Shown here in pieces: positions 55,128 through 61,158 of a DNA stretch of 64,000 nucleotides. The DNA is from Bdellovibrionales bacterium (lineage in GTDB: Bacteria > Bdellovibrionota > Bdellovibrionia > Bdellovibrionales > JAUICD01), in NCBI GenBank assembly GCA_965262715.1, contig OZ253553.1:1065169-1129168 (forward strand), written 5' to 3'. Positions within the stretch are counted from its first letter, which is position 1. Each line of letters starts with the position of its first letter. A program made the translations under genes and the position numbers. The notes beneath the pieces are model-generated. The model saw nothing but the letters and a program-made list of their open reading frames with translations, did not search any database and had not been told where the DNA came from.

Positions 55128-55562
55128 AAGAAAAACTCCTCTTTAGTATTCTATATAATAATACGTGCAGTCCTTAGATAAATAAAGATATCTCATCAAA
55201 TAAACTCTCTTTAAGACCTACTATAAATAAGCAAAATAGACTTTTATCTCTATATGAATCTCAATTAACCAAGACTTAACCTAGATACATCAATAAATAA
55301 CAGGTTTCTTAGAGAAATAAAGACTGCGTAAGATGAGTTAAATTTGTAAAAGTTGCGTAAGGTCAGTTATAATAACATCTCATAAATTCTAGATTTATAA
55401 CTATGAAAGTTACCTTTATTTCCAAAAAGACCTTAAAACTCTCTCTTTTTTCTTGTAACCTTTTGCTTTTTTCCTATATAAGTTAGGTGATATATCAATT
55501 ACTTGATTTAAATAATCCAAAACGTATAAATATAAAAACAGTTAGAACTATGGAGGTTACAA

Positions 55563-55946
55563 ATGGTAAGTAGAGATATTGGACTTTTAATATTAAGAGT
55601 GGGTTGTGGAAGTATGATATTGCTTTTGCATGGATTACCAAAATTAATGTCTTTTACAGAAAGAATGGATAGTTTTCCTGACCCTCTTGGAATAGGTTCA
55701 GCAGCTAGTATGAGCCTTGTTATTTTTGCAGAGTTTTTTTGTTCTTGTGCTGTGATTCTTGGCCTATGGGTAAGATGGGCCACTCTTCCAATTGTTACTG
55801 CAATGGCAGTTGCAGGGTTTATTTTTCATGCAAATGATCCTTGGTCAACAAAAGAGCTACCGATCTTATACTTTGTCCTATTTTTAGCTCTGTTTTGCTT
55901 AAATGGTGGTAAATACTCTTTGGATAGATTGATTGCCAAGATATAG
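55563..55946 (+). CDS. DoxX-family membrane protein
   Basis: 127-aa ORF with GGAGG RBS; DIGLLILRVGCGSMILLLHGLPKL, four hydrophobic helices. Confidence 0.8.
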   Translation: MVSRDIGLLILRVGCGSMILLLHGLPKLMSFTERMDSFPDPLGIGSAASMSLVIFAEFFCSCAVILGLWVRWATLPIVTAMAVAGFIFHANDPWSTKELPILYFVLFLALFCLNGGKYSLDRLIAKI

Positions 55947-55948
55947 GT

Positions 55949-56785
55949 GTGTGTAATTTGAATATAAGCATGAAATGCCATCTTGGAGTGGGGTTAAGAC
56001 CGCCCCACTATAATGATGTATTAAATCATAAAGCTGTCCATCTCAATTGGTTTGAGGTGGTCTCTGAAAACTATATAGACAGTTTTGGCTATCCTAGAGA
56101 AGTTCTAAGAAGGGTAAGGCAATCTTATGAAGTCGCACTTCATGGAGTCTCTTTAAACATTGGCTCTGCAGATCCATTAAATTTTGAATATCTCAAAAAA
56201 CTAAAGGATCTGTCTAAAGAAATCCAACCTTTTATTATATCAGATCATTGCTGTTTTACAGGAGTGGGTAAATTTAATGGCCATGATCTTTACCCCATAC
56301 CCTATACAAAACAGTCCTTAAAACACATTGTACAAAGACTTGACAAGGTTCAAGAATTTTTAAAAAGAGATATATTGATAGAAAATATATCTACCTACTT
56401 GCAGTTTAAAGAAAATGAATTTACAGAATGGGATTTTTTAAATGAAATGGTGAAGCAATCAGGTTGCAGCTTGCTTTTAGATTTAAATAATTTATTTGTG
56501 AATTCTTTTAATCATAATTTTGATCCTTATCAGTTCTTAAACAATATAAATCTATCTTCTGTTAAACAAATCCATCTAGCAGGATTTACTGACAGAAAGA
56601 CATATTACTTTGACACACACTCCTGTTTAGTTTCTAAAGAAGTTTGGTCTCTTTATAAAGAGTTTTGTAAGAAGGGTTATAAGGCTCCAGTTTTATTAGA
56701 ATGGGATGAAGACATTCCCTCTTTTCAAAAATTACAAAAAGAAGTTCTTAAAGCTAAAAAATATATGAAGATAAGCCAATTATGA
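55949..56785 (+). CDS. DUF692/UPF0276 multinuclear non-heme iron oxidase (MNIO, MbnB/BufB-like)
   Basis: 278-aa ORF; GVGLRPPHY, WFEVVSENY, HGVSLNIGS, ISDHCCF, LIENISTY, LLLDLNNLFVNSFNH, IHLAG, DTHS, LLEWD match the family signature. Confidence 0.88.
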   Translation: MCNLNISMKCHLGVGLRPPHYNDVLNHKAVHLNWFEVVSENYIDSFGYPREVLRRVRQSYEVALHGVSLNIGSADPLNFEYLKKLKDLSKEIQPFIISDHCCFTGVGKFNGHDLYPIPYTKQSLKHIVQRLDKVQEFLKRDILIENISTYLQFKENEFTEWDFLNEMVKQSGCSLLLDLNNLFVNSFNHNFDPYQFLNNINLSSVKQIHLAGFTDRKTYYFDTHSCLVSKEVWSLYKEFCKKGYKAPVLLEWDEDIPSFQKLQKEVLKAKKYMKISQL

Positions 56786-57531
56786 AAAAATCTCTTTTAA
56801 AGCAACAAAAGCAATTTTTATCTCAAGTTATCGATAATACAAAAGTTACAAAAGACATCATAGGAGCTACAAGTCTTTCTGGAAAGCAAGCTATATCTAT
56901 CTATCAAGAAGCTTATTTTGCTCGATTACAAGAAGTCTTGTCAGAAAAGTACGAAAGCATTCGACATATCTTAGGAGATGATAAATTTTACAATATCTCT
57001 CAAAAATATATCAAACAGAATAAGTCTACAGACTACAACTTAGAAAATTATGGTAAAGGATTTAGCAGTTTTTTAAAAAAAGAGCAAAAAATAAAAAAAG
57101 ATTTCCCTTTTTTAATAGGCTTAAGCGAATTTGAAAATCTTATGGATCAAGTTTTTCATGCCCCAACAGAAAAACTTAAAAAATACAATGAGAAAACATT
57201 TCCAAAACTTAAAGGAACATCCCGTTTTAAGTTAGCTTCTTATGTAAAGCTACCTATTTTTCAATACAATATTTATGATATTTGGAAAGCCACTCAAGAA
57301 AATTCTCAAATTGATATTCTATCAATAACTCAATATTTGCTCATTTCTAAAAACAAAAATACTGTTTTTGTTCGAGAAATTGACGGGCTCACATCACATA
57401 TCCTTAAAAGTTCTTTAAAAGGACAAAACCTATCTGAAATTATGAATAGCTATAGAAATATAACCTTTAATGATTTACTATCAAGCTTAGAAAATATTCT
57501 TGATTCTTATATCTTGGTTAAAGTTATTTAG
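56782..57531 (+). CDS. DUF2063-family MNIO partner protein (MbnC/BufC-like)
   Basis: 249-aa ORF with a 4-bp overlap onto the MNIO gene; the N-terminal QQKQFLSQVID...ISIYQEAYFARLQEVL...LGDDKFYNISQKYI pattern is typical of DUF2063. Confidence 0.75.
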   Translation: MKKSLLKQQKQFLSQVIDNTKVTKDIIGATSLSGKQAISIYQEAYFARLQEVLSEKYESIRHILGDDKFYNISQKYIKQNKSTDYNLENYGKGFSSFLKKEQKIKKDFPFLIGLSEFENLMDQVFHAPTEKLKKYNEKTFPKLKGTSRFKLASYVKLPIFQYNIYDIWKATQENSQIDILSITQYLLISKNKNTVFVREIDGLTSHILKSSLKGQNLSEIMNSYRNITFNDLLSSLENILDSYILVKVI

Positions 57532-57543
57532 AACTTCTTTTAT

Positions 57544-58140
57544 TTAAAACCTTTGAGATAACTTAGAAATTTCTTTTTTATTAATGGAGCGATTTTGGAT
57601 AAGGTGCTTTTTGTTGAAAATTTGTGGAGAATATTTTTGTTTACTCTCTATTGTTGCTCCTTCCTCTAGGCAATGAGAACAAATACCATAAAGCTCCATC
57701 AAATGATCCGTTAATTTAAATCCAAAATTTAAAGCTACCTGTTGTTGCAGTCTTTCAATACTTTTATTTTCAAACTCATAAATGGTGTGACAGTTTAGAC
57801 AAGTTAAATGGTCATGATGCTGTTGATTTGCCCATTCATACCTAGCCGGCAGTCCTCCTATACGAATTTCTGTAATATAACCACTTTTTGCTAAGTCCCT
57901 TAAAAAACGATATACTGTGGCAAAACCTATTTCTAAGTCCTCTGCATTCTCTTTTTTTAAGTCCTCAAAAATCACTTTGGCAGAAAAATGATTACCTCTT
58001 TTTAAAAGTGCATGCAATATTGCAAGACGTTGTTTCGTAACCTTTAATCCTAAACTTCTGATAATCTCTGTGATCTCTCTTGATATTTTTTGATCTTTAT
58101 TCGATCTTCTTGGTAAAACCATAAAATCTGATAGAGACAT
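57544..58140 (-). CDS. Fur-family metalloregulator with N- and C-terminal extensions
   Basis: 198-aa ORF; LKVTKQRLAILHAL (wHTH), HHDHLTCLNC...CSHC metal-site motifs; about 45 extra C-terminal residues. Confidence 0.85.
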   Translation of the reverse strand: MSLSDFMVLPRRSNKDQKISREITEIIRSLGLKVTKQRLAILHALLKRGNHFSAKVIFEDLKKENAEDLEIGFATVYRFLRDLAKSGYITEIRIGGLPARYEWANQQHHDHLTCLNCHTIYEFENKSIERLQQQVALNFGFKLTDHLMELYGICSHCLEEGATIESKQKYSPQIFNKKHLIQNRSINKKEISKLSQRF

Positions 58141-58177: not shown

Positions 58178-58198
58178 TGATAATAATTCTTATTATCA
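58178..58198. promoter_or_regulatory. Fur-box-like 21-bp palindrome upstream of the Fur-family gene
   Basis: TGATAATAATTCTTATTATCA; an AT-rich palindrome close to the GATAATGATAATCATTATC consensus, 38 bp upstream of the start codon. Confidence 0.55.
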
Positions 58199-58386
58199 GA
58201 AAACCCATAGGTCAAGAAGATTCATTCATATAATTTTTATGAGTCAATACAGGTGCTTTTATCTTCTTGCAGTGCATTGAAACTGCTTTTTAAAGTGCGT
58301 GTTGGGTACTTTTGATTTTCTTGGACATTTAACCGACCTTAAGCAATCTTTATAATTTTTAAGAGATTTGTTGTTGTATCTATAAT

Positions 58387-58758
58387 CTATAATTGACGAA
58401 AATCTTTAATTTCTACAAGAGGATCTTCCCCTTTGTAAAAGTAATTGATCACATCTATCCATGTCCAAGGCTCATGAATATTATTTGGAACTTTAGCCCC
58501 TTCCGTAGGACGATTATCATTTGAAGCAGGCCAACCATATTGAGTTAAATAATTGGCTGCATGTTGAGGCATCCCATAACCATGATTATTTATGATTCTT
58601 CTACGACGAATTACCTCAGAATATCTGTTACCGAAGCTTGGTAATGTAATTTTGATTTTCGGATTGGTTGCCTCACAATCCCTCCCTTGCTTATCATTAA
58701 AAAAAGCCAAAATTTTCAATGAATTTACGAAACAAAAGAGGGAATCATGAGTTACCAT
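58387..58758 (-). CDS. hypothetical protein (possibly a gene fragment)
   Basis: 123-aa ORF; no recognised motif; abuts IS-disrupted DNA. Confidence 0.35.
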   Translation of the reverse strand: MVTHDSLFCFVNSLKILAFFNDKQGRDCEATNPKIKITLPSFGNRYSEVIRRRRIINNHGYGMPQHAANYLTQYGWPASNDNRPTEGAKVPNNIHEPWTWIDVINYFYKGEDPLVEIKDFRQL

Positions 58759-58871: not shown

Positions 58872-60188
58872 GGCCTTGTTGCACAAACATCATTTAGTTT
58901 ATAAGCCAGAGATTTGTGAAAGGCATTTTCCATAGTCCTTAGAGGGCCCCCGTGCCTTGTATTGCTATTATTTTAAGATTTTATTATAGAATAAAATAGT
59001 TTAAGAGATATTTACCCTAAGCCGCTAGCCTAGTCCTATTTCAGAAGTCTTTCACAAATCTCATTCTTAAATTTTTATGCAATAAGATCTTTTATGAGTT
59101 TGATATATCTATTACTTTGATTTTTTGTTTTTAATGATTATAAAATTTACCCATCCCCAACTTTCACAATCACTAAATCAGAAGGAGCTAGAGATGGGTA
59201 AAAATAAAAAAATAAACTGGAGTCTTTATAATAAGTCTCTAGTCAATAGAGGTCAAATCACTTTTTGGTTTTCAGCAAATATCGTCAAATCTTGGTATGC
59301 AAAATGTTCTTCAAAGCAAGGGGGTCAACAAGTTTACTCTGATAAAGCTATTGAAACTCTTAATATATTAAGATTCATATTTGGTTTAAAATTGCGATCT
59401 ACAGAAGGTTTTGCTAAATCCCTAGTTGAACTTATGGGTCTTGATATAGAAATACCTAATTATACAACTCTTTGCAGAAGATTACAGAAGTTATCAGTAA
59501 AACTAGAAAGAAAGCTATCTTCTCACAAGAATCCTCATATTGTCATTGATTCCACAGGTCTTAAAGTTTATGGGGAGGGAGAGTGGAAAGTCCGTCAGCA
59601 TGGGTATTCTAAGAGGAGGACATGGAAGAAGCTACATTTAGCGGTAGATGAGTCAAATTCCCAGATTAAGGCATCTGTTTTGAGTGATAATTCTGTAAAG
59701 GATAATGAGGTTTTTGAAGAGTTATTGACAGGATATGAAGATGAGATAGGCCAAGTTTCAGTTGATGGGGCTTATGACTGTAAGAATTGTTATCAGTTTA
59801 CAAGTGATAGAAGTATAAAATTGGTTGCTCCACCTAGAAAGAATGCTGTGATTAAGAGGCATGGAAATTGTCGGGGATCGCCGCTTCTTAGAGATACTTA
59901 TATTAGAGAAATCAAGAAGATGGGTAGAAAGAAGTGGAAAAAAAAACATAAATATCACAGGAGGTCTATATCAGAAACAGCTATGTATAGATTTAAAACT
60001 TTATTAGGTGATAAATTATCTTCTAGAGAATTTCATCGTCAAGCAAATGAAGTGTTTATTAAATGTAAAATCCTTAATCAGATGATTGTGCCTTCTTCTC
60101 TTTCAGCTTGATAAAAAAATATTAAGTAACAATCTTACTTAAAAAATAAATAAAATAAAAACTATTTAAATCTTTGTGCAACAAGGCC
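58872..60188 (+). mobile_element. IS5-family (IS903-group) insertion sequence
   Basis: Perfect 16-bp terminal inverted repeats: GGCCTTGTTGCACAAA (58872-58887) and TTTGTGCAACAAGGCC (60173-60188). No matching target duplication; unusually long (about 320 bp) left non-coding arm. Confidence 0.75.
59194..60111 (+). CDS. IS5-family (IS903-like) DDE transposase
   Basis: Start MGKNKK after the GAAGGAG RBS. VIDSTGLKVYGEGEWKVRQHGYSKRRTWKKLHLAVD, VSVDGAYD and YHRRSISETAMYRFK closely mirror the IS903 transposase. Confidence 0.9.
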   Translation: MGKNKKINWSLYNKSLVNRGQITFWFSANIVKSWYAKCSSKQGGQQVYSDKAIETLNILRFIFGLKLRSTEGFAKSLVELMGLDIEIPNYTTLCRRLQKLSVKLERKLSSHKNPHIVIDSTGLKVYGEGEWKVRQHGYSKRRTWKKLHLAVDESNSQIKASVLSDNSVKDNEVFEELLTGYEDEIGQVSVDGAYDCKNCYQFTSDRSIKLVAPPRKNAVIKRHGNCRGSPLLRDTYIREIKKMGRKKWKKKHKYHRRSISETAMYRFKTLLGDKLSSREFHRQANEVFIKCKILNQMIVPSSLSA

Positions 60189-60246: not shown

Positions 60247-61158
60247 ATGCAGAAACCTATTCAGATCACTCAAGTTATTGAAGATAGTGCAAAAGAAATT
60301 TATCCTTTTCTTCGCTTTGCTTTTTTTTGGTTATTTTTACTTCTATCTCCCTTTCTACTCAGTAATTTGTTGTTGGTAGCTTTTCCTTCTTTATTTTTGT
60401 TAGAACATGTATTAGTTGTAACTGATGGGTTTGGTTATCTTGTATGGATTATATCAATACCTTACTTGCTACAATGTTTTTACAAAAACAAACCGCCTTC
60501 TTTTATTCAAATCCTTCAGCAACTCAAAGCACATTTTTTCCCAATATTGATTGAGGTATTGAGGATCGCTGGCCGTCTCATTTTTATTGCTTTTCTCCTT
60601 GCAATCATCTTAATTATTCCAGCCTTTATATTTGCTTCCCTTCCTGTGTTTTCCGATCGTCAATTTCTTGCTATTATTTTGAGTCCTATATTTTTTTCAC
60701 TTGTGTTAACAGTCATGTTTGCATTTACTTTTGTGTGGCCACGTTTTTTGTTTATCCCTTTAATTTGTCTATTTAATAAGTCTTATCAAAAAAAACAGAT
60801 TGATGTCCTTGAGTACTCTAAAGTTTTGACTGAAGGCTACAGATCCTCCATCTTTATTTGGATTTTTACTATACTCTTTATTATTAAGTTTCTTAATCTT
60901 TTTCCTTATATCTTGTTTATTCTGCGCTCTCCCCATAGACTTCTCTACCTCGATTTGGAGCTGCCATACGAAGAAATCAGTTCTTTAACCTTAGAAGAGT
61001 GGGTTTTATCATCCTTCTCTTCCTACTTTTTTGTTCCTTTTTCTATTATAGTTTATTATAAGTTCTATATGCTTTTGGAAGGCAGACTTCAAGACTTAGA
61101 CACTGAAGAGCTTAATAAAAAAGAAGGGATAAGTAACTTCTTTAAAGTTCTATTTTAA
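60247..61158 (+). CDS. polytopic membrane protein, function unknown
   Basis: 303-aa ORF with 6 or more hydrophobic helices. Confidence 0.6.
   Translation: MQKPIQITQVIEDSAKEIYPFLRFAFFWLFLLLSPFLLSNLLLVAFPSLFLLEHVLVVTDGFGYLVWIISIPYLLQCFYKNKPPSFIQILQQLKAHFFPILIEVLRIAGRLIFIAFLLAIILIIPAFIFASLPVFSDRQFLAIILSPIFFSLVLTVMFAFTFVWPRFLFIPLICLFNKSYQKKQIDVLEYSKVLTEGYRSSIFIWIFTILFIIKFLNLFPYILFILRSPHRLLYLDLELPYEEISSLTLEEWVLSSFSSYFFVPFSIIVYYKFYMLLEGRLQDLDTEELNKKEGISNFFKVLF

Follow-up and report, generated by a model that had tools for sequence, protein, structure and literature searches.

The subject of this study is a three-gene module in a 64,000-nucleotide stretch of DNA (hereafter, the window) from a Bdellovibrionales bacterium (NCBI GenBank assembly GCA_965262715.1, contig OZ253553.1, positions 1,065,169 to 1,129,168 of the forward strand), whose genome, denoted G000, is represented by a single contig of 2.94 Mb (G000:C1). 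The module consists of genes for a DoxX-family inner-membrane protein, a multinuclear non-heme iron-dependent oxidase (MNIO, DUF692) of the BufB type, and a BufC-like DUF2063 partner, followed by a convergent gene for a Fur-family regulator (Table 1). Open reading frame (ORF) listing and hidden Markov model (HMM) scans gave the same gene order as an earlier annotation made from the sequence alone, which we refer to as the original prediction. Only 2 bp separate the end of doxX from the first possible start of the MNIO gene (TTG at 55958 or ATG at 55970 could also serve as the start), and the start of the DUF2063 gene overlaps the MNIO stop codon by 4 bp (ATGA), so that the three genes look like one transcription unit. 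A ribosome-binding site, GGAGG, is found 7 bp before the ATG of doxX, and a 435-bp intergenic region (55128-55562) separates the gene from a divergent ExbB-ExbD-ExbD-TPR operon. The Fur gene, which had been described as starting just beyond the partner gene, is indeed convergent with it and close to it, but the end that faces the partner gene is its stop codon, 12 bp beyond the stop codon of the partner. The assignment to the bufferin-type MNIOs with a DUF2063 partner holds, because the enzyme scores above the cut-off of the BufB model NF050167 and the partner matches PF09836; the partner also gives a weak match to the HvfC family over residues 36-244, below the cut-off. Bufferins are peptides made by ribosomes and modified after translation (RiPPs), and neither a DUF2282- or BufA2-type ORF nor a Cys-rich signal-peptide ORF was found in or beside the module by ORF listing and precursor HMM searches, as the original prediction had noted for canonical precursors.

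That prediction offered three explanations for the missing precursor, i.e., a substrate encoded elsewhere, a new short or unconventional precursor, and a non-RiPP substrate, and proposed a whole-genome search for precursors. The search points to the first of them. In the relatives of the same order, small signal-peptide proteins directly preceding MNIO genes carry the motif ECHGxNxCKGxGxC...SCAGxNxCKGKGW, and an HMM built from these proteins retrieved a single significant ORF from the six-frame translation of G000 (E 5e-19; the next best match had an E value of 0.56). The ORF encodes a BufA2-family precursor of 118 amino acids, located about 297 kb from the module on the same contig. The precursor begins with a signal peptide and contains six Cys residues, none of which varies across an alignment with 11 relatives; its ORF follows a strong AGGAGG ribosome-binding site. 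A search of the whole genome with the DUF2282 model (PF10048) gave nothing above the cut-off, only one chance match of 12 bits. The DUF2282 search missed the precursor because it is of the BufA2 type, for which there is no Pfam model; the precursor has, indeed, no Pfam match. The six-frame translation of G000 held no relevant repeat precursor of the EGKCG/oxazolin type, and a heuristic scan of the genome for exported Cys-rich small ORFs revealed no other bufferin-like one. We therefore regard the module, with a probability of roughly 0.8, as the part of a Buf2-type bufferin system that supplies the maturase, with the precursor gene no longer linked to it.

The precursor gene has a neighborhood of its own. 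It starts 21 bp downstream of a gene for NADPH-dependent FMN reductase (FMN_red, PF03358) on the same strand, and the same order and orientation recur in the genome of a different genus of the family (G002) and at two further loci (L070 and L074). A gap of 21-41 bp separates the genes where it is readable (G000 and L070), and in G002 and L074 they abut; the two are probably co-transcribed. The pairing is specific to the family; canonical clusters in the order do not show it and often have a YceI gene upstream. We treat the pairing as a lead and not as part of the mechanism. A promoter-like element, TTTACA..GTTTA(C/T)ATTA, is common to the regions upstream of FMN_red in L070, L074, and G000, at about 60-70 bp from the start of the gene in the relatives versus about 430-480 bp in G000. 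The extra DNA upstream of the gene in G000 (region 1419653-1420406) resembles an insertion and includes GC-rich hairpins as well as AACATA repeats. Adjoining the FMN_red-bufA2 operon is a pair of genes for an AAA_15 ATPase and a DUF3226 protein (G000:C1:1420407-1422238; L043:10408-12239), with matches to PDC-M38, a candidate defence system (291.8 bits for A and 134.9 bits for B), and to AbiLi; the pair is kept at the same place in L070 and L074.

The best argument at hand for BufA2 as the substrate of the enzyme pair comes from comparison among genomes. Among the 41 genomes searched (G000 and 40 relatives), 16 possess BufA2, and all 16 of these also possess an MNIO. The bufA2 gene adjoins the MNIO gene in 14 of the 16, and the exceptions are G000 and G002. 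In the latter, MNIO-DUF2063 lies on contig C95 and FMN_red-BufA2 on contig C66. The two halves are about 800 kb apart on a 2.66-Mb metagenome contig in the ENA (ERZ28763718 ctg124916), which carries FMN_red-BufA2 near 0.74 Mb and DoxX-MNIO-DUF2063-Fur near 1.54 Mb. The synteny around bufA2 on this contig is that of G000, with rpsU-yqeY and the AAA_15/DUF3226 pair on one side and a 110-aa ORF, murD, and mraY on the other. In the metagenome sample ERZ25067264, the two halves are on separate contigs, and a 2.1-Mb metagenome contig carries a lone BufA2 beside rpsU-yqeY. Conversely, genome searches found both MNIO and BufA2 to be absent from G001, a genome of the same genus as G000, and from the reduced genomes G003 and G004. 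G001 keeps FMN_red (64% identity) and DoxX, and no remnant of bufA2 or of the module was found in it, including behind FMN_red. It is this joint retention and joint loss of unlinked loci that carries the argument.

The state of the genes themselves bears on whether the module could be a decaying or functionless remnant, left behind when an operon was broken up by rearrangement. G000 is heavily rearranged and rich in copies of insertion sequences (ISs) and miniature inverted-repeat transposable elements (MITEs), and the relative of the same genus has lost the whole system, both of which would fit such decay. The three ORFs of the module are, however, of full length, and the MNIO keeps every residue that is conserved in at least 92% of 40 homologues from the relatives, including H65, D99, H100, E145, D178, N181, H209, D222, H224, and E251. 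By analogy with MbnB-type structures, we take the His, Asp, and Glu positions among these to be iron ligands; DUF692 and MbnB proteins are the only relatives with solved structures. Moreover, at least three or four diverged genomes show the split with genes that have stayed intact; across these genomes, the MNIOs are about 52% and the DoxX proteins 80-94% identical, and this argues for purifying selection. A remnant is, thus, very improbable. As for the rearrangements, comparison of G000 with G001 (L066-L068) shows synteny broken into blocks of a few genes, which indicates extensive rearrangement in the lineage. An IS5-type element is located in the window at 58921-60188 (transposase ORF 59125-60111; DDE_Tnp_1_5/DDE_Tnp_1); G000 has no fewer than 11 full-length copies of it that are nearly identical. 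This element was considered and rejected as the direct cause of the split, because the split is older than the genus and no copy borders the bufA2 locus.

The class of the enzyme agrees with that of the precursor. The MNIO is the only one in G000 and scores below the cut-offs of the other NCBIfam equivalogs, i.e., HvfB (230 versus 360), MbnB (41.8 versus 325), ChrH (47.4 versus 600), and ApyH (67.6 versus 400), as do the partner with HvfC (45.4 versus 142) and the DoxX protein with HvfX (47.3 versus 80 bits). The original prediction had suggested placing the enzyme phylogenetically. In a maximum likelihood tree, it is the sister of the G002 MNIO (support 84/95), and the two nest among the BufB proteins of the same order that are encoded directly beside BufA2; the MNIOs linked to DoxX and to precursors of the KCG type fall outside this group. 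In the relatives examined, a DUF2063 gene, when detected, always follows the MNIO gene. Other MNIO clusters occur in the order at L057 (G040), L052 (G038), L050 (G031), L049/L051 (G012/G032), and L058 (G014). One of them is a YceI-MNIO-DUF2063 cluster in a genome without BufA2, and several encode precursors of another kind, Lys/Cys-rich and with a signal peptide, that have KCxGK or KCADGSCGDKK repeats, some along with DoxX and an extracytoplasmic function sigma factor.

Another reading is that the maturase pair has other or additional substrates, either exported Cys-rich proteins of G000 or a non-RiPP substrate, and that BufA2 goes unmodified or is one of several clients. Since the genes are unlinked, there is no genetic tie of the enzyme to a single substrate; G000 does encode other exported Cys-rich proteins, and the literature leaves open that stand-alone precursors go unmodified (PMC12452194). 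These proteins, however, resemble no known class of MNIO substrate, the precursor HMM matched BufA2 only, and the relatives show co-occurrence and joint loss of MNIO and BufA2, which makes this reading quite improbable. A non-RiPP substrate, as proposed originally, gains no support and is not needed now that BufA2 has been found elsewhere in the genome. The Cys-rich proteins in question are about ten paralogues of ~154 amino acids, with an N-terminal signal-anchor and six conserved Cys residues (MKLKKTSPRRLLYLLAIVIIGLLGL...), encoded for instance at G000:C1:729482-729946, 734055-734519, 1184423-1184887, 1717487-1717951, and 1841827-1842297, and a predicted lipoprotein of 59 amino acids (G000:C1:2298432-2298611, +) with a Cys-/Gly-rich tail (…LVGCGSDDCDDGQVKNDAGTCVACGGGGTQPQCSS).

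The region upstream of doxX was also considered as the site of a very short new precursor, the obvious candidate being a 27-aa ORF. The ORF exists and contains a single Cys without a ribosome-binding site, just as the original prediction had described it. It has no family match and no counterpart in G002. Its ATG is lost in L071, one of the two loci that share the gene order of the module, although the intergenic region there is 87% identical at the nucleotide level, and it is cut off in the other, L069, where the spacer upstream of doxX is shortened to 126 bp. A MITE fragment makes up a large part of the intergenic region, and ORFs of such length are abundant by chance in AT-rich DNA; 64 ORFs of at least 25 amino acids are found in the 9 kb around it. 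The 27-aa ORF itself is ruled out as the precursor by its lack of conservation in L071 and L069, and a short precursor of any kind in the region is hardly conceivable. The suggestion of a new short or unconventional precursor, accordingly, gains nothing from the present data, given that BufA2 was found. A conserved stretch of 39 bp, CTTGTAA..TTTTGCTTTTTTC..TAAG.TAGGTGA, which overlaps the 3′ end of the ORF, is retained in all three genomes and may represent the promoter of doxX-bufBC. The MITE-like repeat is a dispersed element of ~540 bp whose ends are inverted repeats around TTGCGTAAGGTCAGTTA; G000 contains at least 29 such ends, and full copies are located, for example, at G000:C1:1503943-1504485 and 401168-401701. 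Its terminal motif, TGCGTAAGGTCAGTTA, occurs three times in the window versus 0.28 expected. The fragment upstream of doxX is about 110 bp in length and creates the best sigma-70-like match of the spacer (TTGTAA-18-TATAAT, 55344-55373), and a second end fragment is found upstream of fur (58330-58400, -).

DoxX had been regarded as a core gene of the cluster, and this view is weakened by its distribution. Each of the five genomes of the family has a single orthologue of it (50-69% identity), including the three that lack MNIO and BufA2. Distant orthologues lie beside nifU, HU, or uvrC (G001; an ENA contig, 64% identity), and in G002 the gene is on a third contig apart from both bufferin halves. 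The block DoxX-MNIO-DUF2063-Fur is kept in L069 and L071, and the canonical Buf2 clusters of the order are mostly without DoxX. Because DoxX is single-copy family-wide, also in genomes without bufferin genes, its position here is lineage-specific, and the doxX-bufB junction is a juxtaposition specific to the sub-lineage of G000, L069, and L071. DoxX is an independent, family-wide gene that is probably not needed for the modification; in this sub-lineage it is probably co-transcribed with the maturase genes.

The adjacency of fur to the module had been taken to fit a role in metal stress. The adjacency itself is real and recurs in L069 and L071 despite differences in both outer flanks, a pattern that might be expected if Fur directly controlled the module as an iron- or metal-regulated unit. 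No Fur box with up to six mismatches to the 19-bp consensus was, however, found upstream of doxX or of FMN_red/bufA2, while fur itself has a box with three mismatches located 38 bp upstream of its start, which suggests autoregulation; a scan of the plus strand of G000 found only one site with three mismatches or fewer. In addition, fur is the only gene of its family in G000 and, therefore, probably encodes a general iron regulator, and the adjacency is absent in G001 and G002. Because the 12-bp convergent junction is a very small target that leaves little room for rearrangement breakpoints, we read the conserved adjacency as most likely incidental. Direct control of the module by Fur is, thus, unlikely, the metal-stress role is weakened by the missing boxes and by the absence of the adjacency in the sister genus, and Fur is most likely an unrelated neighbor. 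Scans for promoters and terminators gave counts close to the shuffled expectation, and Rfam searches of both loci gave sub-threshold chance matches only. Beyond fur, a 123-aa ORF (58387-58758, -) and a 303-aa multi-pass membrane ORF (60247-61158, +) have no match in Pfam or NCBIfam.

Table 1. Features of the bufferin module, its surroundings, and the remote precursor gene. Positions are those of the window unless prefixed with G000:C1.
Feature	Position	Strand	Evidence or remark
MITE-like repeat end fragment	55262..55372	+	doxX upstream region; terminal ~29 bp tandemly duplicated
27-aa ORF	55403..55486	+	judged non-coding; one Cys
Conserved 39-bp stretch, candidate promoter	55452..55490	+	upstream comparison of window, L071, and L069
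DoxX-family inner-membrane protein	55563..55946	+	Pfam PF07681, 50.9 bits (cut-off 23.6)
BufB-type MNIO (DUF692) maturase	55949..56785	+	PF05114, 333.7 bits; NCBIfam BufB NF050167, 335.3 bits (cut-off 310)
DUF2063 partner (BufC-like)	56782..57531	+	PF09836, 68.2 bits over residues 8-98
Fur-family regulator, convergent with partner gene	57544..58140	-	PF01475, 113.8 bits
Fur-box-like palindrome GATAATAAGAATTATTATC upstream of fur	58179..58197	.	3 mismatches to 19-bp consensus
BufA2-family precursor, 118 aa	G000:C1:1418675-1419031	-	NF050166, 81.4 bits (cut-off 60)

If the scheme established for the Caulobacter system (PMC11626156) is transferred to G000, BufB and BufC would bind the precursor in the cytoplasm and oxidize specific Cys residues of it to 5-thiooxazoles, the signal peptide would direct the modified peptide to Sec export, and the peptide would chelate or buffer excess copper in the periplasm. 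The sole departure from that scheme would be that the enzyme acts in trans on a substrate supplied by a separate transcript. Several points weigh against the interpretation of the module as half of such a system. The evidence that the BufB/BufC pair modifies the remote BufA2 in trans is comparative and not direct, and the role in copper handling is transferred from Caulobacter. In addition, the precursor shares its operon with an FMN reductase gene and not with a metal-related one. Lastly, comparison of the upstream regions of the two loci, in three orthologous pairs, revealed no operator or promoter motif that would link them; the words in common are confined to the sigma-70-like TTTACA/TGTAAA, with nothing specific among them. 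A more speculative, and rather doubtful, extension is that the bufferin system of this family has become stably split and trans-acting, with the precursor captured together with the FMN reductase and the maturase pair placed, in one sub-lineage, behind a DoxX gene of housekeeping type and next to the sole Fur. The peptide might then serve in a stress response linked to redox, quinones, or iron, instead of in the copper/SigF response known from model systems, and the precursor and the maturase might be regulated independently.

Compared with known systems, what we describe is a split bufferin cluster of an already described kind and, in that sense, an ordinary one. It resembles bufferin 2 of Caulobacter vibrioides (bufA2-bufB2-bufC2, CCNA_03001-02999; PMC11626156) in its BufB-family MNIO, its DUF2063 partner, and its Sec-signal precursor with six conserved Cys residues of the BUF_6/12Cys/NF050166 family; the C. 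vibrioides operon is, like the ancestral operon of the order, without DoxX. In contrast to bufferin 2, the precursor gene of G000 lies about 297 kb away behind an FMN reductase gene, DoxX is encoded directly upstream of bufB, and no regulator of the SigF/NrsF type is found nearby. The usual, though not obligatory, feature of Buf2 systems that the precursor gene adjoins the MNIO gene is thus not seen in G000. The Buf1/gig operons (DUF2282-MNIO-DUF2063-DoxX; gig of Cupriavidus metallidurans and buf1ABCD of C. vibrioides) share the logic of an enzyme with its partner and the presence of DoxX in the cluster, and DoxX is known to be dispensable for modification in the maturation of Buf1. G000 has, however, no DUF2282 precursor, and its DoxX gene, which comes first rather than last, did not belong to the cluster ancestrally. 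The HvfABCX/oxazolin systems with EGKCG repeats likewise bring together an MNIO with a DUF2063 partner and a protein of the DoxX type, but the matches of the G000 proteins to HvfB, HvfC, and HvfX are below the cut-offs, and the genome contains no EGKCG-repeat precursor.

The closest parallel is provided by the stand-alone precursors in the landscape survey of MNIOs (PMC12452194), in which, as in G000, the precursor is unlinked to the MNIO. The survey found sizeable proportions of Buf1 and Buf2 precursor genes to be unlinked to MNIO genes and suggested that an MNIO from a different locus modifies such precursors; an MNIO was present in every one of the 864 genomes that have Buf_6/12Cys precursors. 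The present case is a worked example of how searching the whole genome with the BufA2 model can resolve a RiPP maturase that seems to be an orphan; the DUF2282 model misses the precursor. The conserved pairing of FMN reductase and bufA2 is a small new lead on the regulation or use of bufferins outside the copper paradigm. What the present case adds to the known systems is modest, namely the linkage to FMN reductase and a one-to-one split that is conserved in the family. G000, nevertheless, differs from the cases in the survey by its unambiguous pairing of one enzyme with one precursor on a single contig, and by a family-conserved split that was not singled out there. The one-to-one relation, together with the joint loss in a sister species, lends good comparative support to the maturation in trans that the survey had only suggested.

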